The position numbers and the translations under genes were made by a program. A stretch of 64,000 nucleotides of DNA, taken from NCBI GenBank assembly GCA_964567895.1, contig CAZMOX010000001.1, positions 20,992-84,991 of the forward strand, read 5' to 3'. Positions 6,758 through 56,636 of this stretch are shown here, piece by piece. The notes below the pieces were generated by a model. The model worked only from the letters and a program-made list of their open reading frames with translations, did no database searches and was not told the origin of the DNA. This stretch comes from an uncultured Spirochaetales bacterium (GTDB taxonomy: Bacteria; Spirochaetota; Spirochaetia; JABMQR01). Within the stretch, counting starts at the first letter, position 1; each line of letters starts with the position of its first letter.

Positions 6758-6825
6758 GTTATGCCCCAGTTTTTAAACAGGGACTCCCAAAGGAGCCCCT
6801 GTAGTTCTTTTATCATGTGGTGGAA

Positions 6826-8064: not shown

Positions 8065-8192
8065 TGCTTACCTCCTGCGTAATAACTCAATTATAAAATG
8101 GCTCCGCCTGTCTGTCAATAAAAAAATATTTTATTTTTTATTATTGGTGATGAAATTTTATTTCAAAACATTTTGACAAAAGTAAGGTTTTT

Positions 8193-9350: not shown

Positions 9351-9357
9351 AAATCTT

Positions 9358-10281: not shown

Positions 10282-10284
10282 GCT

Positions 10285-12095: not shown

Positions 12096-12099
12096 ACTG

Positions 12100-13888: not shown

Positions 13889-13900
13889 ACCGCGCTGACT

Positions 13901-31087: not shown

Positions 31088-32632
31088 ATGAAAACATATG
31101 ATGCAGTTATCGTAGGTGCCGGTGTTATTGGCTGTGCAATTGCGCGAACTCTTGCCCAAACAAACCTCTCTCTATTGATTATTGAAAAAGAACCGGATAC
31201 CGGTTTCGGCATCAGCAGCAGAAACAGCGGGGTGGTGCATTCAGGTATTCACTATGCCCCAGGCTCAAACAGAGCTGTGTATAATGTCCGGGGTAACCGC
31301 ATACTGGAAGAACTCTGCAGCGAACTTAAGGTTCCCTACAAAAGATCCGGTAAAATAACAGTTGCCTTTTCCGATGAACAAGTGCACATATTAACAACAC
31401 TGCTGAAGCAGGGAACAGAGAATGGTGTACCCGGTATCAAACTGATCGATAAAAATGAGATGGAAATACTCCAACCGGGGACCGGGGGGAAAGCCGCACT
31501 TTATACCCCGTCAACTGGTATTGTCAGCCCATACGAACTTACTATCGCATTGGCAGAGAGTGCTTATGCGAATGGAGCAGAATTCAGGTTCAATCATACC
31601 GTTAAATCTGTTGATCTCCCCGATCCGGCACAACACAGAGAACATTTCCTTCTGCATACCGAGCATGTAGAAAGTTCCAGAACAAAAAGGATCTCCTATG
31701 CTGCTAAAGTTGTCATAAATGCCGCAGGCCTTGGTTCTGCCGATATAGCTAAAATGGCCGGAATTGATGAATACACAATCTACCCTTGCCGGGGTGAATA
31801 CTATGTCCTTGATAAAAGACTACGGAACTCACTAAATTTGTTAATATACCCTGTTCCCGGTGCTCATAGCAGCGGGCTGGGAATACATCTTACCAATACC
31901 GTTGATGGAAATATTCTTATCGGTCCCTCAAATGAATATATTATGGATGATGAAGATACTTCTACCACTATTAATATAATGGAGACACTCCGGGAGGAGG
32001 GGCATCATCTTCTGCCTACTTTGGGCGGTTCGGATTTTATCAGGAATTTTTCCGGTATTCGACCAAAGCTTGCTCCGCCGGAAGAGGGAGGTTTTCGGGA
32101 TTTTGTAATCGAATCGCGTTCGGATATTCCTGGTTTTATTAACCTTATGGGCATTGAGAGCCCCGGCCTTACCGCTTCACCTGCAATTGCTGAGAAGGTA
32201 AAGGTATTAGTAGGAAAGCTTATCCCACTGCAGAATCGGGAGAACATTGTACGAGGGCGACCTGTTATACACAATACTCCATTTACTGAAAAGTCTTTTT
32301 CCTCCTGTTCCAAGGAAGAAAAATCCAGGCTTATTTCACACAATCCCGACTACGGTTCTATTGTCTGCCGCTGTGAAGAAGTTACTTTAGCAGAAATTAA
32401 AGAAGCTGCTGCACGTACACTTGGTCCTGTTACTTTTGCAGGAATTAAATATCGCACCCGGGCTATGATGGGAAGATGTCAGGGGGGTTTCTGCCTACAG
32501 CGGTTAACTGAAATTCTCCGGGAATCGTTTGGTATTACCGTAGAAGAACAAACCCTGAAAGGTCCAGGCACAGAACTTTTCATGGGTTCGTTAAGAACAT
32601 CTCAAACACCCGATATAAAAGAGTCACTATGA
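31088..32632 (+). CDS. FAD-dependent oxidoreductase of the anaerobic glycerol-3-phosphate dehydrogenase GlpA-like type, with a C-terminal BFD-like [2Fe-2S] domain
   Basis: Dinucleotide-binding fold YDAVIVGAGVIGCAIAR at the N-terminus, and BFD cysteines CRCEEVTLAEI...GRCQGGFC. Confidence 0.75.
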   Translation: MKTYDAVIVGAGVIGCAIARTLAQTNLSLLIIEKEPDTGFGISSRNSGVVHSGIHYAPGSNRAVYNVRGNRILEELCSELKVPYKRSGKITVAFSDEQVHILTTLLKQGTENGVPGIKLIDKNEMEILQPGTGGKAALYTPSTGIVSPYELTIALAESAYANGAEFRFNHTVKSVDLPDPAQHREHFLLHTEHVESSRTKRISYAAKVVINAAGLGSADIAKMAGIDEYTIYPCRGEYYVLDKRLRNSLNLLIYPVPGAHSSGLGIHLTNTVDGNILIGPSNEYIMDDEDTSTTINIMETLREEGHHLLPTLGGSDFIRNFSGIRPKLAPPEEGGFRDFVIESRSDIPGFINLMGIESPGLTASPAIAEKVKVLVGKLIPLQNRENIVRGRPVIHNTPFTEKSFSSCSKEEKSRLISHNPDYGSIVCRCEEVTLAEIKEAAARTLGPVTFAGIKYRTRAMMGRCQGGFCLQRLTEILRESFGITVEEQTLKGPGTELFMGSLRTSQTPDIKESL

Positions 32633-33948
32633 AAAAAAACCTGAATTTTTCATTAGAGAATGAGCCTCAATTTGCTGTTGCCATAATTGGGGCAGGGCCG
32701 GCGGGGTTGGCCGCTGCTTTCGGGGCGGCAAAAGCGGGTGCTGAATCTGTCGTAATTATTGAACGGAACTATCAACCTGGAGGAATTCTCAACCAGTGTA
32801 TTCACGATGGTTTTGGTTTACACCGATATAATGAATCTCTCTCCGGGCCGGAATATGCTGCCCGGGAAAATAATATTTTACAGAATAAAGAGATAATTGA
32901 TAAAATCACCCTGTTAGCCGGAACCTTTGTTCAAGATCTCGTACCGGAAAATCAGGGTTTTTCGCTTGCAGTTATGTCTTCAGGATCTTTTAGGGTAATA
33001 AGAGCGGCGGCTGTTGTTTTAGCTATGGGTTGTCGGGAGCGAACCGCCGGTGCAATCTCTTTACCAGGAACCAGGCCTGCCGGAATCTTTACTGCAGGAA
33101 CAGCCCAACGCCTAATGAATATGCAGAATATAAGTGTTGGTAAACGTGCTGTTATTATTGGATCGGGTGATATTGGACTAATAATGGCCAGAAGGCTTAC
33201 CCTGGAAAGCGCTGACGTTGCCGCGGTTACTGACATACAGCCCTATCCCGGGGGACTCGACCGGAATGTTAGACAATGTCTTCATGATTTTAATATTCCG
33301 CTTATGCTATCCACCGGAGTCGTTAAAGTACATGGGAAAAAACGGGTTGAAGGAATTACTGTTGCCCCCCTGGATACTTTAGGTAATTTGGAATTATCAT
33401 CATCAACCTATATTTCCTGTAATACCATTCTACTCTCAGTAGGTCTTATACCGGAACATGAACTGGCAAGGGGTGCCGGTGCGGCACTGGATACATCCAC
33501 ACAAGGTCCAATAGTTGACCAGCATCTTATGACAACAGTTCCAGGGTTGTTCGCCTGCGGAAATGTACTGCAGGTGCATGATCTTGTCGATTTTGTATCG
33601 GAAGAAGCGGAGTATGCCGGATCTTGTGCGTCTAACAAGGTACTTACCCCACCCCGGCTCTCTATAGAAACCACTCAGGCCAACAGCACCACTTTGTCTT
33701 TAAAAGTAGGATCCAATTTGCGTTATGTGCTTCCTCATACCATTACAGAACCAGGCCGCATAACTCTCTCTATGCGTGTAACCGTACCGGAAGTAAATTT
33801 CCGTGTCCATGTAGCACGTCTGGAAAAAAGTGCTGACAGGATCCTGTTAACAAAAACATTCAGCAGAGTGTCACCATCTGAGATGTTACGATTTACCTTT
33901 AACTGTGATACAGTTGAGCCCTTGGAGGTGTATGGTGAATCTTTCTGA
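32629..33948 (+). CDS. FAD/NAD(P)-binding pyridine nucleotide-disulfide-type oxidoreductase (second subunit of the triad)
   Basis: Two dinucleotide-binding folds, AIIGAGPAGLAAAFGAA and VIIGSGDIGLIMARRL. There is a 4-bp overlap with the upstream gene. Confidence 0.7.
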   Translation: MKKNLNFSLENEPQFAVAIIGAGPAGLAAAFGAAKAGAESVVIIERNYQPGGILNQCIHDGFGLHRYNESLSGPEYAARENNILQNKEIIDKITLLAGTFVQDLVPENQGFSLAVMSSGSFRVIRAAAVVLAMGCRERTAGAISLPGTRPAGIFTAGTAQRLMNMQNISVGKRAVIIGSGDIGLIMARRLTLESADVAAVTDIQPYPGGLDRNVRQCLHDFNIPLMLSTGVVKVHGKKRVEGITVAPLDTLGNLELSSSTYISCNTILLSVGLIPEHELARGAGAALDTSTQGPIVDQHLMTTVPGLFACGNVLQVHDLVDFVSEEAEYAGSCASNKVLTPPRLSIETTQANSTTLSLKVGSNLRYVLPHTITEPGRITLSMRVTVPEVNFRVHVARLEKSADRILLTKTFSRVSPSEMLRFTFNCDTVEPLEVYGESF

Positions 33949-34393
33949 TCAGGAAAAACATATCGTAGAAGAACTCACCTGCATTGTTTGCCCAAAAAGT
34001 TGTGTTCTCAGGGTTGAGAAAGACAAAATATCCGGGACAATTACCGCAATACATAATGCAAATTGCCAGCGGGGAATCGCTTGGGTTACCCAGGAACTGC
34101 TTCATCCAACCAGAAGTGTCTGCAGCTCAGTACTGGTTGAAAATGGAACCGAACCGCTGACAGGGGTCAGAACAAATCAGCCAGTTTCCAGGGATGATGT
34201 GTTTAAGGTTATGGGGGCAATAAAGAGTTGTCGAATCTCTGCGCCGGTAGCTATTGGTGCAATAGTACTGGAAAATCCCGGCGGTGTTCCCTGCAGAGTC
34301 ATCGCAACAAGAGCGGTTGGAAGAGAAGATCGGAAGCTGGAGACGGGAAGCCGGAAGATGAAGAGAAAAATTTTAATACAACTTCCAACTTGA
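33932..34393 (+). CDS. DUF1667 domain protein (third subunit of the triad). The start is chosen at MVNLSD, which has a GGAGG ribosome-binding site.
   Basis: The Cys motif CIVCPKSCVLRV is typical of DUF1667. It is co-linear with the two oxidoreductase genes. Confidence 0.6.
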   Translation: MVNLSDQEKHIVEELTCIVCPKSCVLRVEKDKISGTITAIHNANCQRGIAWVTQELLHPTRSVCSSVLVENGTEPLTGVRTNQPVSRDDVFKVMGAIKSCRISAPVAIGAIVLENPGGVPCRVIATRAVGREDRKLETGSRKMKRKILIQLPT

Positions 34394-34505: not shown

Positions 34506-35912
34506 CTAGCCCCTTGTTTCTCTTGCCAACAACTTTAATCTCTGAAGATCATCACGCGTCTGCCCCCGCCATTCTGTCGGAAAAAAAAGGTTATTATGAT
34601 AGAGAGGCTCTTCAGCAAGCGGAAAATCGCTGGCTTTTACGGCATCCTCCCACATTGGGGTTCCGGGAACAGGTGAATATTCTGCAATAGATACACTTAC
34701 TCCGGCTTCAGCAGCAACCCTGATTGAAGCTTCTACCTCATCAGCATGCTGACCGGGAAGTCCTGTAAGGATATATACAGGAAGCTCCTTTTTTGTAAAC
34801 CCGGCTTTGAGCAGCATCTCTATAGAGTCATGGAATTGCATCGTTGAGAATTTATGATCATGAAGCAGATGGAACTCACTGGAGGCTGATTCAAAACCCA
34901 TTCGTATCTCCTGGAAACCGGCTCTCTTCATAAGCCGGGCACTCTCCTCATCTATATACCGGACATGTACTGCATTGGGTGTATAGAAAGAGAATGGTAT
35001 ACCGGATTGAATAACCCGCTCCAGGAAAGGAAGCAGAACCTTCTCTTTATTAACCAAAAGAGCATCATCATAGAATCCAAAATGTCTTATCCCTTTTCTC
35101 TGGTAGAGATTTCGAATAAGCGTAAAGGCTTCATCAGGATTACCACTGTCAAAAATTGGGTTTATCAAATTCGAGGCACAATAGTCGCAGTGCAGCGGAC
35201 AGCCGATGTTGAGCCGAATCACTCCGGCTCCCTGACCCCAGAAATCTGCACCTTTTCCAGGTTCTACATATGTAGGGATCGACGGATAGCGTGGGATCGA
35301 CCCGGAAGGCATCGGAAACCCATTTACTGATAGAAAGGCTTGTATTGGATCCGGACTATCCCCTTTCACTACAAGATCTGCTCCGGTTACTCGTTCGGCA
35401 TGTTCGGGCATAAGTGAGGCATAGATTCCACCAACCAGTATCCTGGTTTTCGGTACCAGCTTTCGAACAATTTCTGCAGTCTCTACAACTCCCTGATACC
35501 AATAGGTCATTCCGGATGTAATGCAGACTATATCAGGTTGTGATTTCCTGATTTTATCTGCCAAAACTTCTCTCAGAATTCCATACCTTCCAAATATTCG
35601 GGGGATGCTCCTGATGCTCTCAGGGAGTGGTATATGCTGCTTAAAAAACTTTCCCGTTCCATTCTGCTTTCGTTTGGGTTTTCCAAGAACTTGTTCGGTT
35701 TCCGGATCCTGCCAGTTGAGGGCATTGATATAGGCTGTATCGTATCCAGCCTCTCGAAACCAGGTCTCAAGCCGTATAAGGCCATAGGGTTTGAGAAAAA
35801 GATCATAGAGTGCAAAATCATATATAGGGGGTTGGATGAATAATACTTTGGGTTTTTGATTTACTGCAGATTCCATGATATGAAAGATACCAGAGGCAAA
35901 TTTAATAATCAA
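34506..35912 (-). CDS. B12-binding-domain radical SAM protein
   Basis: The CxxxCxxC motif GCPLHCDYC follows an N-terminal cobalamin-binding-like Rossmann region. Length 468 aa. Confidence 0.75.
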   Translation of the reverse strand: MIIKFASGIFHIMESAVNQKPKVLFIQPPIYDFALYDLFLKPYGLIRLETWFREAGYDTAYINALNWQDPETEQVLGKPKRKQNGTGKFFKQHIPLPESIRSIPRIFGRYGILREVLADKIRKSQPDIVCITSGMTYWYQGVVETAEIVRKLVPKTRILVGGIYASLMPEHAERVTGADLVVKGDSPDPIQAFLSVNGFPMPSGSIPRYPSIPTYVEPGKGADFWGQGAGVIRLNIGCPLHCDYCASNLINPIFDSGNPDEAFTLIRNLYQRKGIRHFGFYDDALLVNKEKVLLPFLERVIQSGIPFSFYTPNAVHVRYIDEESARLMKRAGFQEIRMGFESASSEFHLLHDHKFSTMQFHDSIEMLLKAGFTKKELPVYILTGLPGQHADEVEASIRVAAEAGVSVSIAEYSPVPGTPMWEDAVKASDFPLAEEPLYHNNLFFPTEWRGQTRDDLQRLKLLARETRG

Positions 35913-35970: not shown

Positions 35971-36042
35971 GGCGCCGTACCCAAGTGGTAAGGGAGAGGT
36001 CTGCAAAACCTTTATGCACCGGTTCGAATCCGGTCGGCGCCT
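35971..36042 (+). tRNA. tRNA-Cys (anticodon GCA)
   Basis: Cloverleaf with acceptor stem ggcgccg/cggcgcc, anticodon stem gaggt/acctt, anticodon loop cuGCAaa, T-loop ggttcgaatcc and discriminator U. Confidence 0.8.
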
Positions 36043-45603: not shown

Positions 45604-46680
45604 TTATAATCGGATTCCCACCTGAAACCCAAGCTTTTCGGGTAAAATAATGGGATTCAATGAAATTTTATAATCTTTTTCTACTATTTCGGGTTCCATA
45701 TTTCTTGTAAGCCAAATCGCCGCTGCCTGACCGGCAATTGTTGTACCTAAAACAATACTTGCCTGCGTTCTGGGGTCTACTGATGTTATATCATCCAGGA
45801 TCATAGTAGTAAAAAAGCCAATTAAACCGCCTCCAAGCCCGCCTACCGTTACCAATCCCGTACGTAAAGGACTCCACTTAAGATCTTCCCATAGTTTCAA
45901 GCTCCCATATACTGCCAGATCGGTAGTTATCAAACCCCCAATACTTGTTGCCCTGGTATCATCAAACTCAAGAACTGCCTGCGTAAACAGCAGGTAGTAG
46001 TAATTTGCCCAAAAATAGCTGTGCAGCATAAAACTTCCCTGCCCTTCCGGAGGGGCACCATCCTTAAACAGAGCATATGCTGCGGCACGGGAACCAACCA
46101 GAGTCAGAAGTTGTCCGCCAAGCTCAATTTTTCTACTAAGTGGAAAAGTCCAAATACTGGAAGGATCCACTATTCCTGTGAGGTAGAGATAATTTCCCAG
46201 AGATATAAGCTGGGTACTTTCAATCCACCAATCCTGACCACTGCTAATGGAATGATCCTTTGACATAAGCCAGGCACTGCTCAACCCGAGTCCAACACCT
46301 GCCAATCCTGTTACTCCGGCCATTACATCATCAAATTCATATCCGAAAAGAGATGGCAGCATCATAGATGTATATGTTGCTGTTGCAAGGTTCCCAAGAT
46401 AGAATGTGACAATCCCGGAGTTATCCTGGACATCCCGTAAATCCTGAATACGTTTTAGCGCAGATTCCGCGTACGGTGATTCGGGGAATTTATCAAGCAA
46501 AGCGAAAAATGAATCTTGTGCCCTGCCGGTATTATTATCGAGCAGCAGCTCAAGACCATCAATATAGAGTGAAGTATCAGTAGTTTCCAGGGCTGATAAT
46601 GATAAAGTCGGGATAATCATTAAGCTAATTGCCAGAATGAAAATTGCTTTTTTATTCATAGTATCCCCTTGAAGTTCCAA
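45604..46680 (-). CDS. hypothetical secreted or membrane protein. Signal peptide, then a TPR-like N-terminal segment and a Gly-rich hydrophobic C-terminal domain.
   Basis: MNKKAIFILAISLMIIPTLSLSA gives a signal peptide. No recognisable family. Confidence 0.45.
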   Translation of the reverse strand: MELQGDTMNKKAIFILAISLMIIPTLSLSALETTDTSLYIDGLELLLDNNTGRAQDSFFALLDKFPESPYAESALKRIQDLRDVQDNSGIVTFYLGNLATATYTSMMLPSLFGYEFDDVMAGVTGLAGVGLGLSSAWLMSKDHSISSGQDWWIESTQLISLGNYLYLTGIVDPSSIWTFPLSRKIELGGQLLTLVGSRAAAYALFKDGAPPEGQGSFMLHSYFWANYYYLLFTQAVLEFDDTRATSIGGLITTDLAVYGSLKLWEDLKWSPLRTGLVTVGGLGGGLIGFFTTMILDDITSVDPRTQASIVLGTTIAGQAAAIWLTRNMEPEIVEKDYKISLNPIILPEKLGFQVGIRL

Positions 46681-46887
46681 ATGATAACAAAAAGTATACA
46701 GTAAGGCTCACTAATAGATCAAGACGGACGCTTCTATGATTGCTATTGAAATACAGGCAGAGAACATTGACTGCTGTCCGGGATGGGGATATACTTTCTT
46801 TACAACCGTGGTAATACCACCAGCCATATACATTTTTAGCTTTTTGATTCAGGTTTTTCTGAATGGCCAAATCATGGAGGTTTAATA

Positions 46888-47616
46888 TTGAGATTTAAAC
46901 TGAATCCTGTTACTGTCCCAACTCCTAAAAATATATTCGTAAAACAAATTGAAGAACTTATTCTCTCGGGAGAAGTAGACCCTGGAGAAAAAATACCGTC
47001 GGAACGTATCCTTGCAGGTAAAATGGGAATATCCAGACCGGTTGTACACGAAGGATTGATCGAGCTTGCCAGCAAAGGGCTGGTTACCATGAAACCACGA
47101 CACGGCTGCTATATAAATGATTATAGGAAATCCGGCTCTTTTGAGTTGCTAAACGCTCTCTATCACTACAATTCCGGCGAATTGACAGAAGAAATCCGGG
47201 ATGGATTGGAAGAACTCAGGACTCTCATTGGTATTGATGCAATCCGGAAAATTACCCAAAAGCCGGAAATAAATAAAATTGCGGATGAACTTACGTCCAT
47301 TATGAAAGAGGGAGAAATTCTGAAACCCGGTCAGCCTGCTGCGAAAGCAGAAAATGACTATCGGTTTCATTATACAGTCCTGTATCATAGCGGAAATATG
47401 ATTTATCCCCTGATACTCAACTCAGCCAGAGGAGTTTATCTGAACCTTCTTGAGCATTTTTTCCGTACTCCGGATATTGATATATCGGTAAATAAAATCA
47501 AGAAACAATTAATAGATTCCATGACTGCGGGAAATACTGATACTACTAGTGGGCTAATGAAAAAACTCACATCATATAGAACCTATTTTCAGGAATCATA
47601 TAATGCATCCACGTAA
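46888..47616 (+). CDS. GntR-family transcriptional regulator (FadR/FCD-type C-terminal domain)
   Basis: HTH SERILAGKMGISRPVVHEGLIELASKGLV followed by a helical C-terminal domain. Length 242 aa. Confidence 0.75.
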   Translation: MRFKLNPVTVPTPKNIFVKQIEELILSGEVDPGEKIPSERILAGKMGISRPVVHEGLIELASKGLVTMKPRHGCYINDYRKSGSFELLNALYHYNSGELTEEIRDGLEELRTLIGIDAIRKITQKPEINKIADELTSIMKEGEILKPGQPAAKAENDYRFHYTVLYHSGNMIYPLILNSARGVYLNLLEHFFRTPDIDISVNKIKKQLIDSMTAGNTDTTSGLMKKLTSYRTYFQESYNAST

Positions 47617-49411
47617 ACCAGCCGTAAAAACACTTCACAACATATCAAGAAAACTCAAAAAAAAAAGGTTATCCAGGGTAAAAATCGAAACCTGTTATGA
47701 TGGTAAATCTATCAGGCTTTCCGGGAAAGTCCAAACCTGGCAACAAAAAGTTGAGGCAGGAAATGTAGCTGCCTCTCTTTCCCGAAAATGTAAGGGAATC
47801 GTAAATGACATCATCGCTGAATCAGTGCATGAGCCCCGGTTAAAAACACCCGGATCCGGCGATTTTGATAAAACCCTGGATGGTCTGTCGTATGATGCGG
47901 TAATAATCGGAGCCGGAGTAATCGGCTGTTTCATTGCGAGAGAACTTGCACGCTATGAATTATCTGTCGCAGTCCTGGAAAAAGAGACAGATGTAGCAAT
48001 GCATGCTTCCGGAAGAAACGATGGAATGATTCATCCCGGATTTGCACCCAAACCGGGAACCTTGAAGGCAATGTACAACAGCAAGGGCAACAGCATGTAC
48101 CCGGCAATAGCTAAAGAACTTGATATTGAGTATCGGCAATGTGGATCTATCCTCTTGTTTTCATCATCCTGGATGCGTCTGCTTGTACCGTTTATAAAAT
48201 ACCGATGCAGGAGAAACGGGGTTTCCGGAAACTACCGGTATATTACATGTATGCAAGTCCGGAACCTGGAACCTCATGTAACGCATAAACAGAAAGGCGG
48301 TTTTTATTTCCCCACTGCCGGGATTGTATCGCCTTTTCAGATAACTATCGCTTGTGCGGAACATGCAGCACAGAATGGTGCTGTTTTCCATAGAAATACC
48401 TTTGTAACCGGGTTTAAAAACCTGAACAGAAAAAACAAAAGGAAAATTACAGGAATTATTACCAACCATGGGATTATCAGGGCCAATGTTATTATCAACG
48501 CGGCAGGGATATGGGCAGATTACATTGCAGGTATGGCTGATGATCAATTCTTTTCCCTTCATGGAAGAAAAGGAACCGATGCAATACTCGATAAAAAAAC
48601 CGGCAGATACCAAAAGCATATAATGGCAATGCCGTCTTTATTGAAAACGTCGGGTAACCACACCCACTCAAAAGGTGGGGGGATAGTCGTTTGCATTGAG
48701 GGGAATACCCTGTTGGGACCTACAGTAGAGGAAATCCCGGATAGGGAAGATTATTCCACGCATAAAAATGAATTTATAAAACTGGAAAAGCATTTGTCCC
48801 TCAATACCCGGCTGAAAAAGAGTGATATAATTAACTACTACTCAGGTGTGCGTGCGGCAACATGGAAAGAAGATTTTATCGTGGAAAAATCTGAGCGGAT
48901 ACCAAACCTGGTTCATGCCGCCGGCATACAATCACCCGGCCTTGCAAGTGCTCCTGCTATAGCTGTTGATATCCGCAAAATGGTCCTGGATATCCTTTCC
49001 ACAGAAAGGGTCGAAAAAGTTGGAAAAACTGATCCAATTCCACTGAAACAAAACTATATTCCCAGCCGTCAACATCTGCCTGTTCTTAAACTCCTTTCAG
49101 ACGATGAGAAAAAAGCGTTAATCAGGAAAGACCCGCTTTACGGCAATATTATCTGCAGATGTGAGGAGATTTCTGAGGGGGAAGTCCGGGACGCACTCCA
49201 TTCATCACTACCGGCTGTTACCATTGACGGAATAAAACGGCGTACCCGGGCTGGAACAGGGAGGTGTCACGGAGGATTTTGCCTATCAAATGTCCTGGAG
49301 ATAATCAGCATTGAAACAGGAATCCCCCAGTCACAGATCACCAGAAAGGGTGGAGATTCAAGAATAATCATCCGGGACATTGGGGGAAAAGAGGGCAGAT
49401 ATGGGGACTGA
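47603..49411 (+). CDS. GlpA-like FAD-dependent oxidoreductase with C-terminal BFD [2Fe-2S] domain and a ~100-aa BON-like N-terminal extension. Paralog of 31088-32632.
   Basis: The motifs YDAVIIGAGVIGCFIAREL at aa ~108 and CRCEEISEGEV...GRCHGGFC match the first triad. The extension IETCYDGKSIRLSGKVQTWQQKVEAGNVAASL resembles a BON domain. Confidence 0.7.
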   Translation: MHPRKPAVKTLHNISRKLKKKRLSRVKIETCYDGKSIRLSGKVQTWQQKVEAGNVAASLSRKCKGIVNDIIAESVHEPRLKTPGSGDFDKTLDGLSYDAVIIGAGVIGCFIARELARYELSVAVLEKETDVAMHASGRNDGMIHPGFAPKPGTLKAMYNSKGNSMYPAIAKELDIEYRQCGSILLFSSSWMRLLVPFIKYRCRRNGVSGNYRYITCMQVRNLEPHVTHKQKGGFYFPTAGIVSPFQITIACAEHAAQNGAVFHRNTFVTGFKNLNRKNKRKITGIITNHGIIRANVIINAAGIWADYIAGMADDQFFSLHGRKGTDAILDKKTGRYQKHIMAMPSLLKTSGNHTHSKGGGIVVCIEGNTLLGPTVEEIPDREDYSTHKNEFIKLEKHLSLNTRLKKSDIINYYSGVRAATWKEDFIVEKSERIPNLVHAAGIQSPGLASAPAIAVDIRKMVLDILSTERVEKVGKTDPIPLKQNYIPSRQHLPVLKLLSDDEKKALIRKDPLYGNIICRCEEISEGEVRDALHSSLPAVTIDGIKRRTRAGTGRCHGGFCLSNVLEIISIETGIPQSQITRKGGDSRIIIRDIGGKEGRYGD

Positions 49412-50753
49412 GATTACAGGTCGACAACCTGAAAAGCAGTATGACATTCTCATAATCGGGGGAGGGCCGGCTGGTATGGCTGCTGCTGCTGCCGGGGCGG
49501 AACATGGTGCATCTGTTTGCCTTATTGAACGAAACAACAAATTAGGCGGAATCCTGAAGCAGTGTATTCATGATGGATTTGGGATTATTAAGTTTAGTGA
49601 GCGTTTAACGGGGCCGGAATACGCTTACCGATATAGAAACCTGGTGAAATCATACGGCAGCAAGGTAACAGTACTAACCTCCGCGTATGCCTCAGAAATC
49701 TCATACCATCCTGGGAAATCAGCCGTTTACCCGTTTACCACAGAGATAATAACAGCTCAAAATGGAGCTCTTTGCTTTACATCATCAAACTTGATACTGG
49801 CAATGGGATGCCGGGAAAAAAGTGACAGACAGGTTTTTATCCATGGTGACAGACCGGCCGGAATTCTCACCGCCGGACAGGCGCAATATTTTATTAATAT
49901 TCAGGGACTTATGCCCTGCAAACGCTGCATAATCCTGGGAAGCGGTGATATCGGTCTGATTATGGCAAGAAGGCTTGTTCTTGAGGGAGCTGAGGTAGAA
50001 GGAGTATACGAAATCCAGAACGAACCCTCAGGACTAAAGCGTAATATTGTACAATGCCTGGATGATTTCTCGATTCCGCTTCATCTCCAAACAACCGTAA
50101 CTGAAGTGCATGGAAGAGAACGGGTGGAATCAATAACCGTATGCAAGGTAGATGATAATCAAAAAGAAATACTGGGGACTGAAAAAACTATTAATTGTGA
50201 TTCTCTTATCGTCAGTGTCGGGTTAATCCCCGAAAATGATATTCTCAATTTCCCTCAGGTTTTACTTGACCCCCATACCGGCGGTCCGGAAGTAGACCAA
50301 AATATGCAGACAAGAATTCCCGGGTTGTTTTCCTGTGGTAATGCCTTACATGTTTGTGACCTTGTTGATTATGTATCTGAGAGCGGAGAGACCGCAGGGA
50401 CTTATGCAGCAAAAGTTTCACAAAATTCGGGGATTCCCAACAGAACTGTGGAAATACAATCCTCCGGAAACCTGACCTACCAGATTCCACACTTTATTTC
50501 TCTCCCCGACAGCATGAAGGAATCAGCACCCGCACAAAGCATACCGGTCTATTTCAGGGTCGCAAAAAGCACAGAAAAGGCTGAACTTGTTATCAGAAGC
50601 GGTAAATCTGTACTAGTACGGAAACGATACACTAATCTTTCACCTCCGGAAATGAAGCGGGTCGAACTTCCCCTGGCTGCTGTTGCCAAAGCCGCTCTCT
50701 CATCATCGCTGATTGAGTGCATCATGACAGATTTGGGAGAAATTGATGGATAG
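49401..50753 (+). CDS. FAD/NAD(P)-binding pyridine nucleotide-disulfide-type oxidoreductase. Paralog of 32629-33948.
   Basis: Shares ILIIGGGPAGMAAAAAGA and ILGSGDIGLIMARRLVLEGA with the first copy. The whole length is clearly similar. Confidence 0.7.
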   Translation: MGTEITGRQPEKQYDILIIGGGPAGMAAAAAGAEHGASVCLIERNNKLGGILKQCIHDGFGIIKFSERLTGPEYAYRYRNLVKSYGSKVTVLTSAYASEISYHPGKSAVYPFTTEIITAQNGALCFTSSNLILAMGCREKSDRQVFIHGDRPAGILTAGQAQYFINIQGLMPCKRCIILGSGDIGLIMARRLVLEGAEVEGVYEIQNEPSGLKRNIVQCLDDFSIPLHLQTTVTEVHGRERVESITVCKVDDNQKEILGTEKTINCDSLIVSVGLIPENDILNFPQVLLDPHTGGPEVDQNMQTRIPGLFSCGNALHVCDLVDYVSESGETAGTYAAKVSQNSGIPNRTVEIQSSGNLTYQIPHFISLPDSMKESAPAQSIPVYFRVAKSTEKAELVIRSGKSVLVRKRYTNLSPPEMKRVELPLAAVAKAALSSSLIECIMTDLGEIDG

Positions 50754-51114
50754 CAAAGAAAAAGAAATTTTTTGTATACGGTGCCCGAAAGGATGCCTTA
50801 TGCATGTAATTATGCGAAAATCGGGTATAGAAGTAACAGGGGCTGAATGCAGAAATGGTATAACTTATGCGGAGTCGGAAATCATTTGCCCTGTGAGGCT
50901 GCTTACCACAACCGTAAAAACTGCTTTTCCCAGACAACCAAGACTGCCGGTTAAAACTTCAGGGGAAATCCCTCTTAGTAAGTTTCCTGAAGTTCTTAGG
51001 AAGGCTGGTGAAATACTTGTGATAACCGCTCTCCAGCCCGGGGATATAGCAGTAAAAGATATCACTGAGAATGGTATTCATCTTATTTGCACAGGAGGCA
51101 TCGATAATGACTGA
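50743..51114 (+). CDS. DUF1667 domain protein (paralog of 33932-34393)
   Basis: Contains CIRCPKGCLMHV. 123 aa. Confidence 0.65.
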   Translation: MMDSKEKEIFCIRCPKGCLMHVIMRKSGIEVTGAECRNGITYAESEIICPVRLLTTTVKTAFPRQPRLPVKTSGEIPLSKFPEVLRKAGEILVITALQPGDIAVKDITENGIHLICTGGIDND

Positions 51115-52666
51115 TATACTGCTCGTAATTGATTGCGGAACGCAAAGTTTACGGACAGTCCTGTTTAATTCTAAAGGAAAAATAATTGAGAAAGTGAAAA
51201 TTGAGTATGCTCCTTATACTTCCCCCAAACCTGGCTGGGCAGAACAGGATCCGGAAATTTTTTGGCAGTCCCTGGTTAAGGGCTGCCGCATCCTGAAAAG
51301 TAACCAACCGGAAATGTTTGCATCAATTAGCGGGGTCGGAGTCACAACCCTCCGTGACACCATGATTAATCTATCTGAGGATGGGACAGCCCTTCGACAT
51401 GCAACAACCTGGCTGGATACCAGAAAAGCTTCTCCTGTATATAAACCCGGTTTTATCATGCAGTCCGCATATTCCCTTGTCGGGATGCTGGGAACCATCC
51501 GTCAGATTATGGCCGAAGGGAAATTAAACTGGATCAGACAATACCAGCCTGAACTTTGGGAAAAAACATGGAAATTTGTCCAGGTCTCCGGATTCCTGAA
51601 TTTCCGGTTAACCGGCCAGGCAGCTGACTCAATAGCTTCGATGGTTGGTCATATCCCGGTTAACCATAAAAAAAGAACCTGGGCAAGAAGGGGTTCGTTA
51701 CTGGATCATATTTTTCCACTTGAGACTGAAAAGCGTCCGCAAATTGTTGAACCTGGAAAGGAAATTGGCACTATAACCAAAAAAGCTGCACTGGAAACAG
51801 GCATAGCTGCAGGTACTCCCGTTATCGCATGCGGCGCTGATAAAAGCTGCGAAATAGTAGGAATGGGTGTTCTGGAACCCGACATCGGATCCATCAGTTT
51901 TGGGACAACCGCAACTATTTCATTCTCAACAAAACGATACTTCTCACCAATACGGTTTATGCCTGCTTATACCGCAGCTGTTCCCGGCTACTGGGTCCCT
52001 GAAATTGAGATATTCCGCGGGTACTGGATGCTTCGCTGGTTCCGCGATGAGCTGGGATACGAGGAAGAGGAAGAGGCAAAAAGAGTCGGAATACTCCCGG
52101 AAGAACTTCTTAATACCCTTCTTGACGCAGACCCGCCGGGTAATAACGGTTTGATCCTACATCCTTACTGGAGCCCCGGTCTAAACGTACCCGGTGCCAA
52201 AGGCGCAATTATCGGATTTGGCGGGATACATAAAAAAAGCTCAATCTACAGAGGTATCATTGAGGGCCTTGGATATGCTCTGCGTGATGGTATGGAAACG
52301 TTAGAGCGGCGGGGAAGAATTTCCTGCAGCTCAGCAGTGGTTTCCGGCGGGGCAAGTCAGAGTGACAGAATTTGCCAGATAACTGCGGATATTCTTGGAA
52401 AAAACCTTATCCGTGGGGAAACATATGAAACATCCGCCCTTGGAGCAGCGATTATAACCTCAACAGGAGTCGGAATTCATGAATCCATTCCAGCAGCAAC
52501 CCGGGTTATGGTCCGCTATACCAGGAAATTCATTCCCGATAAAAAGAACAGTCAACTCTATGATCGTCTGTATAACGAAGTGTACCTGCAAATTTACAAA
52601 AAATTACGAAATCTGCATGAGACAATTCGGGATATAACAGGCTACCCGGAAAATAATCCGGATTAA
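51104..52666 (+). CDS. FGGY-family carbohydrate or polyol kinase. The start is chosen at MTDILLVIDCGTQSLR; the ORF track extends to 51071.
   Basis: N-terminal sugar-kinase fold (DCGTQSLR, PKPGWAEQDPEIFW) and C-terminal FGGY motifs (GGASQSDRICQITADILG, ETSALGAA). Confidence 0.75.
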   Translation: MMTDILLVIDCGTQSLRTVLFNSKGKIIEKVKIEYAPYTSPKPGWAEQDPEIFWQSLVKGCRILKSNQPEMFASISGVGVTTLRDTMINLSEDGTALRHATTWLDTRKASPVYKPGFIMQSAYSLVGMLGTIRQIMAEGKLNWIRQYQPELWEKTWKFVQVSGFLNFRLTGQAADSIASMVGHIPVNHKKRTWARRGSLLDHIFPLETEKRPQIVEPGKEIGTITKKAALETGIAAGTPVIACGADKSCEIVGMGVLEPDIGSISFGTTATISFSTKRYFSPIRFMPAYTAAVPGYWVPEIEIFRGYWMLRWFRDELGYEEEEEAKRVGILPEELLNTLLDADPPGNNGLILHPYWSPGLNVPGAKGAIIGFGGIHKKSSIYRGIIEGLGYALRDGMETLERRGRISCSSAVVSGGASQSDRICQITADILGKNLIRGETYETSALGAAIITSTGVGIHESIPAATRVMVRYTRKFIPDKKNSQLYDRLYNEVYLQIYKKLRNLHETIRDITGYPENNPD

Positions 52667-52681
52667 TAACAGGAGTAGAAC

Positions 52682-54451
52682 ATGGGAACCGGCACAGGCG
52701 AAAGAAAGCGATACAAAGGATTCAAACCTGAGTGGGAACAAGTACCTCCTCCGGAAAAATCATTCAGGTCAATTCTCAAATGGGGAAACCCTTTAGTCTT
52801 CAAGGAACCGAACGAGCGGCTTTACTCACTTTTAAAGCAGGTCTTAAATCTTTCTGACAAAGATTTTTCCGGAAAAATGAAAGAAGGTCATGAGCAAATA
52901 GTAGATTCTGTCCCCTGCTTATTACATCAGCATATTATTGACAAACTGACTGCTATTGTGGGTGTGGGGGAAAAAGGTTTTTCAACACATACTTACGACC
53001 GGCTCTCAGCTTCATATGGAAAAACAATGTTTGATCTCTTCCGACTCAGGGAAAAAATTATTGAGAACATTCCCGACATTGTATTATTCCCGGGATCAAA
53101 AAAGGAAATTGAGGATATTACCGCTGTTTGTGCTGAATATAGTGTACCACTCTATGTGTATGGAGGCGGTTCATCAGTAACACGCGGAACTGAAGCAGTA
53201 AAGGGAGGGGTAACCCTTGACTTGAGAAAAAACTTTAACAAAGTCGTGGAATTTAATGAAACAAACCAGACAATTACCGTTGAAGCCGGAATATCTGGAC
53301 CAAAGCTGGAGGAAGTCCTGAACAATGCGGAAAAGTTATTTAACGCAAAACGGTCGTATACATGCGGTCACTTTCCTCAGTCATTTGAGTACTCAAGCGT
53401 AGGCGGGTGGGTGGTTACCCGTGGAGCCGGCCAGAATTCCACCTATTACGGAAATATTAAGGATATAGTCTTCAGACAGTGGTATTCTACTCCTGTCGGC
53501 CCAATAAGCACCTACGGGCTTCCCGCTCATGCAGTCGGTCCTGACCTGGATGAAATAATGATGGGAAGTGAGGGAGCTTACGGGGTTTTAACCCATGTTA
53601 CATTACGATTTTTCCGGTATCAGCCGGAGAATCGAAAACGATTCAGTTATATTTTTCGAACCTGGGAGGATACTATAGGGGCTGCGCGGGAAATTGTGCA
53701 ACATGAAGCTGGTTTCCCATCAGTTTTTCGCCTTTCGGATCCGGAAGAGACTGATGTTATGCTTAAGATGTATAAAGTTGAGGGGACAATCATTGAAAGC
53801 GCCATGAATCTTTTCGGGTACAAACCTATGGAGCGCTGCCTTTTTCTAGGGTGGACAGAGGGAGAAAAGGGGTTCTCAAAAAACCTGAATCAAACCATTG
53901 GAAAAATCTGCAGAAAATTCGGCGGTTTTTATCTTACCGGCTACCCCGTTTCCAGCTGGGAACATGGGCGGTTTACCGATCCCTATCTCCGCGAATCCCT
54001 GCAGGATTACGGAATTATTATTGATACTATGGAGTGCGGAGTAACTTGGGATAGCATGAAGGATGTTCACGCCTATGTACGGGCATTTGCAAAATCCCGC
54101 CCGGACACTGTGTGCATGACACATATTTCACATGCCTATCCACAGGGAGCTAATCTTTACTTCATCTTTATCGGGAAATTTAATGATAAGGAAGAATACC
54201 TCGAATACCAGTCTGGAATTTTTGATAATATCCTTTCCAGCGGTGCTTCCATGAGTCATCATCATGGTGTCGGGAAAATGACAGCACAATGGGTTGAGCA
54301 GTCTGTTGGTAGTGAGCGAATGAATGTTTTCCGTGCCCTGAAAAATCATTTTGACCCGGATAATATTATGAACCCGGGAGGAACCCTTGGTCTGGATATG
54401 ACAGAAAAGGAGAGACGCAAACCTCGCTTTTCTGGAAAAAAGTGGGGATAA
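52682..54451 (+). CDS. FAD-linked oxidase of the alkyldihydroxyacetonephosphate synthase (ADAPS/AgpS)-like family
   Basis: 589-aa protein of the VAO/PCMH FAD-binding type. The C-terminal SHHHGVGK is characteristic of ADAPS homologs, not of GlcD, and an N-terminal LKWGNP resembles the ADAPS WNGWG region. Confidence 0.55.
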   Translation: MGTGTGERKRYKGFKPEWEQVPPPEKSFRSILKWGNPLVFKEPNERLYSLLKQVLNLSDKDFSGKMKEGHEQIVDSVPCLLHQHIIDKLTAIVGVGEKGFSTHTYDRLSASYGKTMFDLFRLREKIIENIPDIVLFPGSKKEIEDITAVCAEYSVPLYVYGGGSSVTRGTEAVKGGVTLDLRKNFNKVVEFNETNQTITVEAGISGPKLEEVLNNAEKLFNAKRSYTCGHFPQSFEYSSVGGWVVTRGAGQNSTYYGNIKDIVFRQWYSTPVGPISTYGLPAHAVGPDLDEIMMGSEGAYGVLTHVTLRFFRYQPENRKRFSYIFRTWEDTIGAAREIVQHEAGFPSVFRLSDPEETDVMLKMYKVEGTIIESAMNLFGYKPMERCLFLGWTEGEKGFSKNLNQTIGKICRKFGGFYLTGYPVSSWEHGRFTDPYLRESLQDYGIIIDTMECGVTWDSMKDVHAYVRAFAKSRPDTVCMTHISHAYPQGANLYFIFIGKFNDKEEYLEYQSGIFDNILSSGASMSHHHGVGKMTAQWVEQSVGSERMNVFRALKNHFDPDNIMNPGGTLGLDMTEKERRKPRFSGKKWG

Positions 54452-54550
54452 TCTTACGTAAAAAAAATTTGCTTCCATTAGCCTTCCATTACCCTTGTAC
54501 TGTCTTAAGATATTAAGTATTATCTTGGTTTATAACTTACGTTATATTGA

Positions 54551-55417
54551 ATGCAGAATTATTGCGTTTTTGCCTTACTGATGGGGGGACTTATAGCAGT
54601 GAGCGGGCTATCTTTCAGGCGTGCTGTGATAACGGGCGGTTCAAGTGGTATAGGGTTCTCAATAGCAGCCTGGCTTATTCAGCAGAATACAGAAGTTCTG
54701 CTGGTAGCCAGGGATCCGAAAAAACTTGAACAGGCAGCAACACACCTCACATCGACTTACGGTACAACTACCGGGGTCAAGACTCTTTCTCTTGATATTG
54801 CTGATCGTGCATTAGTTACAGAAAAACTGGGAAAAGCCTGCAGTGATGAGTTGGCCCCGGATTTGCTGGTTAACTGCGCGGGTTTGTCACATCCAGACTA
54901 TTTTCAGGAACTAGACTCGGATATTTTCGATGCAACTGTCAGGACAAACCTTACCGGGACCTGGAATGTCCTGAAAACCGTTGTACCGTATATGAAACAG
55001 GGAAGCAGAGTGGTGAATGTCTCATCTGTTGCCGGTCTTATCGGTACGTTTGGCTATACTGCTTATGCTGCCACGAAATTCGGTATAGTAGGTTTGAGTG
55101 AGGCTTTGAGAAACGAACTCTCCCTTAAGGGAATCCGTGTTTCTGTATTATGCCCTCCTGATACCCATACCCCCCAGCTTGAAAGAGAAAACCTGACAAA
55201 ACCCCCGGAAACAAAAGCTATATCCGGAAACGCCGGTATTCTGAAACCTGAACAAGTTGCACGGGCACTTTTCAAGGGACTTCGCAAAAATAGATTTATC
55301 ATAATACCCGGTTTTCAGAGTAAAATGATATATTTGCTGAAGCGTCTTTTCCCCGGAATTATTTATGCAATGATTGATATGTACGCAAAAAAACCCATAG
55401 GAAGTGATGATGAGTAA
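54551..55417 (+). CDS. short-chain dehydrogenase/reductase resembling 3-ketodihydrosphingosine reductase (KDSR). An acyl/alkyl-DHAP reductase is an alternative.
   Basis: N-terminal TM helix, then VITGGSSGIGFSIA...LLVARDPKKLEQA, which closely parallels the KDSR/FVT1 VTGGSSGIG...LVARN.KL. The catalytic YAATK is present. Confidence 0.55.
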   Translation: MQNYCVFALLMGGLIAVSGLSFRRAVITGGSSGIGFSIAAWLIQQNTEVLLVARDPKKLEQAATHLTSTYGTTTGVKTLSLDIADRALVTEKLGKACSDELAPDLLVNCAGLSHPDYFQELDSDIFDATVRTNLTGTWNVLKTVVPYMKQGSRVVNVSSVAGLIGTFGYTAYAATKFGIVGLSEALRNELSLKGIRVSVLCPPDTHTPQLERENLTKPPETKAISGNAGILKPEQVARALFKGLRKNRFIIIPGFQSKMIYLLKRLFPGIIYAMIDMYAKKPIGSDDE

Positions 55418-56636
55418 TAAAGAAGAGAATCAAAAAATATCTCCTGTTTTCAAAAAATGCTATGCTTTTGAGGATGCAAATGAGGCCCGGCAGGCCGGAC
55501 TCTACCCATTTTTTAAGCCAATCCAGCGGAACAGCGGGACTAAAGTGTATATTGACGATCGTGAATTACTGATGGCCGGCTCTAACAACTACCTGGGACT
55601 TGCAAATGACCCGCGGTTAAAAGAGGCTGCCGAGAGTGTTGTTGAACAATATGGAACAAGCTGTTCCGGATCACGTTTTATGAATGGAACACTTGATCTT
55701 CATGAACAGTTGGAGGTAGAGCTTGCAGATTTTGTCAAAAAAGATGCTGCTTTGTGCTTTACAACCGGGTACCAGACCAATCTCGGAGCCATATCAGCAG
55801 TGCTGGGAAAAGGGGATCACATAATAAGTGATAAATATAATCATGCCTCTATTATGGACGCAGTGTTCCTTACTACCGGGATGAAGCGAAATATCAACCT
55901 GCACAGATACAAACATAACAACATGGAAGAACTGGAAAGAATCCTGAAACGCATACCCAGGAACGCGGGAAAATTAATTGTAACCGATGGGGTCTTTTCC
56001 ATGGAAGGGGATATTACTGAACTGGTGAAAATACGGGAACTGGCAGATGCCTATAAAGCCGGCATCTATCTTGATGAAGCTCACGCAATTGGGGTAATTG
56101 GAAAAACCGGGAGGGGAACCTGTGAGCATTACGAAAACGACTCCCTTGCTGATATCATAATGTGTACCTTCTCAAAATCTTTCGGTTCAATCGGGGGTTT
56201 TGTTGCAGGAAGTGCTGAAGTGATAGATTATATTAAACACATGTCAAGGCCTCTTATTTTCAGTGCATCTATGCCGCCGGCTAATATTGCCGCTGCCCGG
56301 AAAGCACTTGAAATCATCAAGACAGAACCGGAAAGAGTTCACCGGCTCCAGGCAATTGCTAAAAAAATGATATCCGGCTTCAAGTCTATTGGTTTCAATG
56401 TAGGGACTGCTGTAACTCCGGTTGTTCCGCTTATTATTGGGAATAATGAAAAAACTTTTATGTTCTGGAAAAATCTGTATGAACGCGGGATCTATGTAAA
56501 CCCGGTTATCTCACCTGCGGTCCCGCCAAAAAGATCACTTATCAGGACTTCTTATATGTCCATTCACAAGGACGATGAGCTTGACTGGCTGCTGGAAGTT
56601 GCAGAGGAAGAAGGAAAGAAACTGGGAATTATCTGA
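55404..56636 (+). CDS. PLP-dependent alpha-oxoamine synthase, serine palmitoyltransferase-like
   Basis: The TFSKSFGSIGGFVAG PLP-lysine block matches the SPT TFTKSFG pattern rather than BioF or Kbl. The N-terminal GSNNYLGL substrate block is also present. Confidence 0.6.
   Translation: MMMSNKEENQKISPVFKKCYAFEDANEARQAGLYPFFKPIQRNSGTKVYIDDRELLMAGSNNYLGLANDPRLKEAAESVVEQYGTSCSGSRFMNGTLDLHEQLEVELADFVKKDAALCFTTGYQTNLGAISAVLGKGDHIISDKYNHASIMDAVFLTTGMKRNINLHRYKHNNMEELERILKRIPRNAGKLIVTDGVFSMEGDITELVKIRELADAYKAGIYLDEAHAIGVIGKTGRGTCEHYENDSLADIIMCTFSKSFGSIGGFVAGSAEVIDYIKHMSRPLIFSASMPPANIAAARKALEIIKTEPERVHRLQAIAKKMISGFKSIGFNVGTAVTPVVPLIIGNNEKTFMFWKNLYERGIYVNPVISPAVPPKRSLIRTSYMSIHKDDELDWLLEVAEEEGKKLGII

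Follow-up and report, generated by a model that had tools for sequence, protein, structure and literature searches.

We analyzed a 64,000-nucleotide stretch of contig CAZMOX010000001.1 from an uncultured Spirochaetales bacterium (assembly GCA_964567895.1, forward-strand positions 20,992 to 84,991), here called the window and numbered from its first letter. An initial annotation had singled out three genes between 52682 and 56636 as one lipid-backbone module: an oxidase related to alkyl-dihydroxyacetone phosphate synthase (AGPS, also ADAPS), a short-chain dehydrogenase/reductase (SDR) related to 3-ketodihydrosphingosine reductase (KDSR), and a synthase related to serine palmitoyltransferase (Spt, SPT). 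Taking all of the observations jointly, we instead favor, with moderate confidence, the explanation that two transcription units, independent of each other, meet within these genes: Unit A, a kinase/dehydrogenase operon that ends with the AGPS-like gene, and Unit B, a sphingoid pair formed by the SDR and Spt-like genes. We read the locus in this way because every AGPS-like locus surveyed has kinase and/or dehydrogenase genes beside it and none has an SDR or Spt homologue (80/80 vs 0/80), because SDR–Spt pairs occur without AGPS, and because the pair is preceded by a conserved promoter-like motif. The more interesting object is the widespread AGPS-containing operon, which the three-gene finding had clipped at its last gene.

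A junction of two transcription units

The three co-directional genes of the initial annotation are indeed present, as same-strand open reading frames (ORFs) with longest-ORF limits of 52682–54451 (589 aa), 54551–55417 (288 aa), and 55404–56636 (410 aa). They belong to a run of eight genes in a single direction (46888–56636), encoding a GntR/FadR regulator, a GlpA-like dehydrogenase, a Pyr_redox_2 flavoprotein, a DUF1667 protein, an FGGY kinase, the AGPS-like flavoenzyme, the SDR, and the Spt-like synthase; the AGPS-like gene is the last of a six-gene operon spanning 46888–54451. According to gene callers and the conserved DNA upstream, the SDR begins at GTG 54599 (54599–55417, + strand, 272 aa), and according to gene callers and conserved DNA, the synthase begins at ATG 55410 (55410–56636, + strand, 408 aa). 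With these starts, the SDR stop and the Spt start overlap by 8 nt, and we term the pair translationally coupled. A protein identical to the oxidase is encoded on 17 contigs, and in the six of these that are shown, which represent six samples (four assemblies from ENA, one metagenome from JGI, and one Logan run), gene order is identical. These are real genes and not chance ORFs.

A scan of species genomes, one for each species, that used aligned AGPS-like homologues gave at least 600 matches, of which 597 were confirmed. The neighborhood counts given throughout refer to the best 80 of these at least 600 AGPS-like loci, with SDR and Spt homologues sought within 10 kb. No SDR or Spt homologue was found within that distance at any of the 80, whereas an FGGY kinase and/or GlpA-like, Pyr_redox_2, and DUF1667 genes stood beside the AGPS-like gene in all of them.

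The converse comparison gave the same picture. An SDR gene lies beside an Spt gene at eight Spirochaetota loci (L012, L095, L096, L097, L099, L101, L137, and L138), several of which are metagenomic contigs and one of which, from Sediminispirochaeta bajacaliforniensis (L012), has the order MarR–SDR–Spt. There was no AGPS-like gene near the pair in L012, L096, L097, L099, L101, L137, or L138, and no AGPS C-terminus was found upstream of the SDR in L095, whose Spt is 87% identical to that of the window. L137, with an Spt that is 88% identical, keeps the downstream iron uptake genes DtxR–FeoB–FeoA–FeoA, has an unrelated divergent gene 5′ of the SDR, and lacks the AGPS operon. A metagenome scan with the Spt protein returned about 10 close relatives, and because the remainder were BioF/Kbl-like enzymes of distant relationship, co-occurrence of the pair could be counted in small numbers only.

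Upstream alignment of the window, L137, and L095 revealed an invariant promoter-like motif, CCCTTGT and TATTATC separated by a 17-nt spacer, at 54492–54524 (+) of the window, beyond which the upstream DNA of the three loci is unrelated; the motif scores below the threshold of our consensus scan. The hypothetical membrane protein encoded 5′ of the operon (45604–46680) has no homology to the gene 5′ of the SDR–Spt pair in L137. The insertion boundary is fixed on the SDR side only.

The single module proposed by the initial annotation, in which the AGPS-like, SDR, and Spt-like proteins would act together on ether-linked and/or sphingoid lipids, draws on the adjacency of the genes on one strand, where only 147 nt separate the SDR from the AGPS-like gene, on the lipid-backbone roles of all three families in eukaryotes, and on the FadR-type effector domain of the operon's regulator, but it is missing from all 80 AGPS-like loci and from every other Spt/SDR locus examined, including relatives with 82–88% Spt identity, and the pair has its own promoter-like motif; this comparative context largely refutes it, and we regard it as very improbable. 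One point does count against two separate units: the DNA separating the AGPS-like gene from the SDR yielded no terminator, which leaves room for co-transcription by read-through in this organism. The same context evidence disfavors the initial annotation's alternative, in which the SDR would be an alkyl-dihydroxyacetone phosphate reductase working with the oxidase. Units A and B adjoin each other only in the lineage of this organism itself, and their adjacency is not evidence of a shared pathway.

A conserved operon of kinase, dehydrogenase, and AGPS-like genes

Carriers of the AGPS-like gene among the matches listed include Treponema, Brachyspira, Exilispira, many Clostridia, Thermotogae, Caldisericota, Chloroflexi, Acholeplasmatales, and a deltaproteobacterial metagenome-assembled genome (MAG); Clostridium amylolyticum DSM 21864, Emergencia timonensis, and Treponema pedis are carriers in culture. 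The gene lies directly 3′ of GlpA-like, Pyr_redox_2, and DUF1667 genes, usually with an FGGY kinase gene as well, or adjoins a kinase gene alone. By clustering of neighboring ORFs, the GlpA-like gene is present in 69 of the 80 loci and Pyr_redox_2 in 59, a figure that tblastn raises; DUF1667 is beside the AGPS-like gene or the kinase in most loci, and the kinase adjoins the AGPS-like gene in at least 47. Regulators of the GntR/UTRA, TetR, or FadR-like type are nearby in 43 loci, about half. Beyond these regulators and a metallo-beta-lactamase-fold protein, clustering yielded no recurrent partner, and in particular no transporter or further enzyme recurred near the operon.

The metallo-beta-lactamase-fold protein is a PhnP-like phosphodiesterase that takes the place of the FGGY kinase in six loci (L023, L024, L027, L028, L048, and L080). 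In these kinase-less variants, its gene sits between Pyr_redox_2 and DUF1667 (e.g. 8756–9595 in L024). In a Brachyspira MAG (L033, 6100–7800, minus strand), an FGGY–AGPS-like pair stands beside a divergent GlpD/GlpO-type dehydrogenase gene (DAO and DAO_C domains) instead of genes for a three-subunit complex, which looks like a non-orthologous replacement of the dehydrogenase step. An aldehyde:ferredoxin oxidoreductase gene lies downstream of the AGPS-like gene in six loci, four of them labeled Christensenellaceae, and we did not count it as evidence because it is too lineage-bound. An apparent DUF1667–AGPS fusion at an Oscillospiraceae-type locus (L024) proved to be an ORF-finder artefact; when reading frames and stop codons were tested explicitly, none of the loci had a fusion. 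One exception to the constant context was seen on the chromosome of Treponema pedis (L007, 10001–11758), where an AGPS-like gene with 70% identity stands alone, having no kinase or dehydrogenase neighbors.

In the window, the operon is headed by a sigma-70-like promoter match at 46767–46795 (+; TTGACT, 17 nt, TATACT), the best of the region with 10/12 matching positions and a consensus match only. The perfect palindrome TGGTAATACCA, which lies within GTGGTAATACCAC, follows at 46809–46819, 14 nt past the −10 hexamer. GntR/FadR sites have the general pattern T.GT...AC.A, and we consider the palindrome a candidate operator for the FadR-type GntR regulator encoded by the first gene (46888–47616, +). 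That protein matches GntR at 61 bits and FadR_C at 47 bits, both above cutoff; its best NCBIfam matches are the FadR equivalogs, yet these fall below cutoff. Homologues of the regulator are found upstream in Treponema, Spirochaetota, and Chloroflexi loci. A regulator site common to the operon and the SDR–Spt pair was considered and ruled out: TGGTAATACCA has no counterpart 5′ of the SDR, and its sole exact copy in the window is the one before the operon.

The next three genes encode a dehydrogenase complex, assigned by Pfam: a GlpA-like FAD dehydrogenase with DAO and BFD [2Fe-2S] domains (47603–49411, +), a Pyr_redox_2 flavoprotein subunit (49401–50753, +), and a DUF1667 small subunit (50746–51114, +). 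The closest solved structure to the GlpA-like subunit is the Mycoplasma L-alpha-glycerophosphate oxidase. This architecture of DAO-BFD, Pyr_redox_2, and DUF1667 is shared with the three-subunit anaerobic glycerol 3-phosphate (G3P) dehydrogenase of the Thermotoga/Thermococcus type, from which the operon differs in its FGGY kinase, which is not GlpK, in its AGPS-like partner, and in an N-terminal extension of about 95 aa on the GlpA-like subunit. In 4/4 orthologues tested, BON was the best or a recurrent sub-threshold Pfam match of this extension.

The window holds a second set of GlpA-type, Pyr_redox_2, and DUF1667-like genes outside the operon (31088–34393, +), whose products are 35% (GlpA-like), 42%, and 30% identical to their three counterparts in the operon. 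Its GlpA-type protein (514 aa, DAO and BFD) lacks the N-terminal extension, and it has no adjacent glycerol kinase gene. This set is probably the ordinary anaerobic G3P dehydrogenase. The operon's GlpA-like subunit is mostly 40–51% identical to orthologues in other phyla vs 35% to its own paralogue, and the second set and the BON-like extension suggest that the operon dehydrogenase is specialized and may have diverged from G3P specificity.

The FGGY-family kinase (51107–52666, +; Pfam and NCBIfam) has XylB as its best model, at 231 bits and below that model's cutoff of 380, and is about equidistant from xylulokinase, gluconokinase, LsrK, and glycerol kinase. Its TTLRDT segment aligns with TNQRET of glycerol kinase, placing Arg-Asp at the position of the glycerol-binding Arg-Glu.

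The oxidase is AGPS-like in sequence, active site, and fold

The final gene of the operon (52682–54451, +) encodes a flavoenzyme with FAD_binding_4 and FAD-oxidase_C domains (Pfam). Compared with solved structures, it scored 218 bits against Dictyostelium ADAPS and 194 bits against mammalian AGPS vs 70 bits against D-lactate dehydrogenase. Its R350, Y493, and H526–528 align with R419, Y578, and H615–617 of mammalian AGPS, and a comparison of 11 homologues spanning several phyla showed no variation in these Arg, Tyr, and HHH residues. We take Arg419, Tyr578, and His615–617 to have catalytic roles in the mammalian enzyme, from the work on entries 4bby, 4bc7, and 4bca. In a structural search with its AlphaFold model (pLDDT 74), the top 37 neighbors were all AGPS, mutant entries included, with TM scores of 0.65–0.73. 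The N-terminal region is less well covered, in that sequence alignments begin at residue 99–106 and the Foldseek alignments span about 540–560 columns of a model of moderate confidence, implying partial coverage of the N-terminal domain, an extra domain that is absent from D-lactate dehydrogenase and GlcD enzymes. The SHHHGVGK motif reported in the initial annotation is present, and the annotation was right to call the oxidase ADAPS-like as opposed to GlcD- or D-lactate dehydrogenase-like.

Like eukaryotic and myxobacterial AGPS (EC 2.5.1.26; PDB 2uuu and 4bby), the oxidase has two FAD domains and the Arg/Tyr/HHH residues, and perhaps also the N-terminal domain, at about 25% identity in structural alignments. 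Unlike those enzymes, it sits in an operon with a repressor, kinase, and dehydrogenase in strict anaerobes, with no GNPAT/FAR partner nearby: genes for acyltransferase and acyl reductase partners of this type were not recurrent near the AGPS-like gene in the 80 loci, a result for gene neighborhoods, as no genome-wide search was made. By sequence and fold, the oxidase belongs to the AGPS family; by pathway context, it does not. It appears AGPS-like at the level of the active site and is a candidate alkyl-dihydroxyacetone phosphate synthase in vivo.

A proposed function for Unit A

We found no described function for a kinase/GlpA-like/AGPS-like operon in the literature, and neither the FGGY family survey nor the papers on plasmalogen origin treat it. 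We propose that Unit A is a repressor-controlled operon, kept across anaerobic phyla, that would combine a kinase, a specialized paralogue of G3P dehydrogenase, and an AGPS-type flavoenzyme in one route. First, the kinase or the PhnP-like phosphodiesterase would form the 3-phosphate of a 1-O-substituted glycerol, for which a 1-O-alkylglycerol or a lyso-ether lipid is the most plausible identity. The GlpA-like complex would then oxidize C2 to give a substituted dihydroxyacetone phosphate (DHAP), and the covalent flavin chemistry of the AGPS-like enzyme would expel or exchange the C1-O substituent, leaving DHAP or acyl-DHAP and an alcohol. The net result would be oxygen-independent salvage or cleavage of ether lipids in carriers that include gut Clostridia, Treponema, Brachyspira, Thermotogae, and Chloroflexi.

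We favor an ether substrate because DHAP itself needs none of these steps, and the chemistry would be uniquely useful for a C1-O ether. The lack of a linked transporter fits a membrane-permeant or membrane-resident substrate. Classical AGPS enzymology shows that the enzyme exchanges alcohols and can take water as acceptor, which makes the reverse half-reaction chemically plausible. If this catabolic reading is true, the operon would have the same net role, 1-O-alkyl ether cleavage, as alkylglycerol monooxygenase (AGMO), to which it is unrelated in sequence. AGMO is a membrane enzyme that depends on O2 and tetrahydrobiopterin, and the proposed route would be oxygen-free.

Several observations weigh against this proposal. 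The substrate is read from gene content only; FGGY kinases are normally soluble sugar kinases, and we know of none that acts on alkylglycerols. No fatty-alcohol-handling enzyme is consistently linked to the operon in the 80 loci, and the BON match on the GlpA-like subunit remains below the Pfam threshold. We would put the odds that ether or acyl glycerolipids are what this operon handles slightly below even. The specific catabolic direction, in which at least about 600 species would cleave or salvage 1-O-alkyl glycerolipids anaerobically by reversed AGPS chemistry as a counterpart to AGMO, is a tentative suggestion that could well be wrong.

A somewhat unlikely alternative is that the substrate broken down by Unit A is not a lipid but a soluble derivative of glycerol or a polyol, such as a glycosylglycerol, a tetritol, or a short-chain glyceryl ether, with the AGPS-like protein acting on the keto-phosphate formed or as a dehydrogenase of the 2-hydroxyacid type. 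The usual substrates of FGGY kinases are sugars and polyols, and this kinase is nearest to XylB, GntK, LsrK, and GlpK. GntR/UTRA regulators, which are often sugar-phosphate sensors, accompany the clostridial versions of the operon; one locus has a GH31/melibiase-like gene upstream; and the FAD-oxidase fold is common to D-lactate dehydrogenases. A precedent in logic is the EryA/EryB system of Brucella, in which an FGGY kinase phosphorylates a polyol that a GlpD-like enzyme then oxidizes; unlike it, Unit A has no isomerase or racemase genes and has an AGPS-type enzyme instead. Running counter to a soluble substrate, no sugar transporter, glycosidase, isomerase, or aldolase recurs in the 80 loci, the AGPS-specific HHH, Arg, and Tyr residues are invariant, the BON-like domain suggests membrane association of the dehydrogenase, and the spirochaete regulator is FadR-like.

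We consider it doubtful that Unit A is biosynthetic, with the kinase and dehydrogenase supplying DHAP from glycerol that is acylated elsewhere, the AGPS-like enzyme making alkyl-DHAP for 1-O-alkyl ether lipids in the manner of eukaryotes and Myxococcus, and the local SDR possibly serving as the reductase. The AGPS catalytic residues and fold are kept, and many of the carrier lineages are anaerobes reported to have ether lipids. The literature commonly reads bacterial AGPS homologues in this way (PMC11868695). However, DHAP acyltransferase and fatty acyl reductase do not recur in the 80 loci, and a dedicated kinase and dehydrogenase would be needless because glycolysis supplies DHAP. Adjoining GntR/TetR repressors are typical of inducible catabolism, the kinase-first layout also weakens this reading, the SDR is KDSR-like and never found with AGPS elsewhere, and the plasmalogens of anaerobes come from an unrelated PlsA/PlsR route (cited in PMC13012113).

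A probable sphingoid base cassette in Spirochaetota

The first protein of Unit B is a classical SDR (adh_short, E = 4e-44, Pfam) with the motifs ITGGSSGIG, NVSS, and YAATK, which supply the NADPH-binding (TGxxxGxG) and Ser/Tyr/Lys (YxxxK) residues of the family. Alignments with the top solved SDRs end near residue 197 in all cases except the KDSR TSC10, which continues to residue 241, through EN.TKP..TK.I; the protein carries the KDSR-specific C-terminal region (PPDT.TP...EN.TKP.ET). Several homologues are labeled 3-dehydrosphinganine reductase in JGI/IMG, and identity to human KDSR is 39% over 230 aa, as computed with an unverified human sequence. We call it a predicted 3-ketosphinganine reductase. 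It shares with human KDSR/FVT1 and yeast TSC10 the KDSR-type C-terminal segment of a classical SDR, differs from them in having no conserved N-terminal anchor, and is not of the NAD-epimerase type represented by CerR in the Caulobacter pathway.

The second protein is an alpha-oxoamine synthase (Aminotran_1_2, E = 6e-56, Pfam) whose closest relative, by profile and among solved structures, is the SPT of Bacteroidota. Ranked by score, its best solved match is SPT of Sphingobacterium multivorum (PDB 3a2b/8guh; 387 bits, 47% identity over 376 residues), ahead of the best BioF/Kbl enzyme (257) and cysteate-C-fatty acyltransferase (205). The top NCBIfam model is NF047600 (Bacteroidota Spt) at 490.9 bits, with BioF/Kbl-type models at no more than 378, over 110 bits lower. 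Its His, Asp, and His residues and the pyridoxal phosphate lysine of the TFSKS block align with the equivalents of H138, D210, H213, and K244 in 8guh.

These comparisons agree with the initial annotation on both families: the synthase, with TFSKSFG, is closer to the SPT type than to BioF or Kbl, on score ranking, and the SDR is KDSR-like, on its C-terminal alignment with TSC10 and the JGI names of its homologues. Details of the SDR N-terminus fared less well. The SSGIG...LVAR portion of the described motif is there (GGSSGIG...LLVAR), but the VTGGSSGIG portion reads ITGGSSGIG. The claimed membrane anchor is unsupported because the hydrophobic N-terminal stretch is encoded entirely upstream of the GTG start at 54599, which is conserved, in a 5′ extension that belongs to the longest ORF only and is without conservation; we reject this N-terminal anchor. 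The SDR also has a hydrophobic tail at its C-terminus.

Most likely, the pair would condense serine with an acyl thioester and then reduce the 3-keto product to a sphinganine-type base, with the preference of the synthase for serine over cysteate or another amino acid predicted from similarity only. In Bacteroides, SPT and the SDR BT_0972 perform the condensation and reduction steps (PMC9278070). The two genes are unlinked there, whereas the KDSR-like and Spt-like genes here overlap, in a Spirochaetota host. Two points count against a sphingoid product: the 490.9 bits of the synthase are below the curated NF047600 cutoff of 640, and no ceramide synthase gene was seen in the window; likewise, no bCerS- or CerR-type gene was noted among the neighbors of the SDR–Spt pairs. 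Both points would suit a non-sphingoid pair, in which the synthase takes cysteate (toward capnine-type sulfonolipids), glycine, or alanine and the SDR reduces the corresponding keto product, and Bacteroidota sulfonolipids are reportedly also made by pairs of an SDR and an alpha-oxoamine synthase (PMC11211663). We judge this improbable given the margin of the SPT match over cysteate-C-fatty acyltransferase and Kbl/BioF, the resemblance of the SDR to human KDSR, and a neighborhood without cysteate synthase.

Other features of the window

Upstream of the operon, the window contains several further features. At 10285–12825 (+), a 241-aa ORF comes after EtfB- and EtfA-like genes; its matches to the FAD-oxidase_C/GlcD models are confined to their C-terminal part, and it lacks FAD_binding_4. 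Possibly, this ORF is what a truncation or frameshift has left of an LctD-type lactate dehydrogenase from an Etf-coupled system. Ankyrin repeats (Ank_2, 433 bits, nine stretches) make up nearly all of a 1255-aa protein encoded at 573–4340 (+), which is unusual for a free-living bacterium, and L014 also has an ankyrin-repeat gene. The region 5001–16254 encodes ABC transporter components, the anhydro-MurNAc kinase AnmK, a SIS-domain protein (MurQ-like), an RpiR regulator, a GH3 enzyme (NagZ-like), and a serine beta-lactamase-family protein, and looks like a cluster for cell-wall sugar recycling. A family B DNA polymerase (DNA_pol_B and exonuclease domain) is encoded at 28095–30488 (−) in this spirochaete genome. 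A B12-binding radical SAM protein (34506–35912, −) adjoins tRNA-Cys (35971–36042), the only tRNA gene of the window and the only match of an Rfam scan, which found no riboswitch in the region.

Implications for lipid metabolism in anaerobes

The initial annotation had assumed that Spt is limited to a few bacterial lineages, a premise that is out of date, as MAGs from 38 phyla are reported to encode Spt-like proteins (PMC11334938). Unit B is for this reason a known pathway in a new phylum-level instance. Neither the searchable literature nor the Black Sea study, in its supplementary text, gave us a report of sphingolipid genes or lipids in Spirochaetota. The KDSR–Spt pair is a compact two-gene cassette of the Bacteroidota/eukaryote type, and its retention in several Spirochaetota lineages predicts sphingoid-base synthesis in the phylum.

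Unit A bears on how AGPS homologues are interpreted more broadly. Metagenomic surveys count bacterial AGPS homologues, by homology alone, as markers of ether-lipid biosynthesis (PMC11868695). A clade of the family resides in an operon with a repressor, a kinase, and a dehydrogenase and without an acyltransferase or reductase partner, so such marker inferences may be wrong for hundreds of anaerobe species. AGMO has been described as the sole enzyme known to cleave alkylglycerols (PMC7911779). If Unit A does cleave ethers anaerobically, it would account for the recycling of ether lipids in the gut and in anoxic habitats, a process for which only an O2-dependent enzyme is now known.

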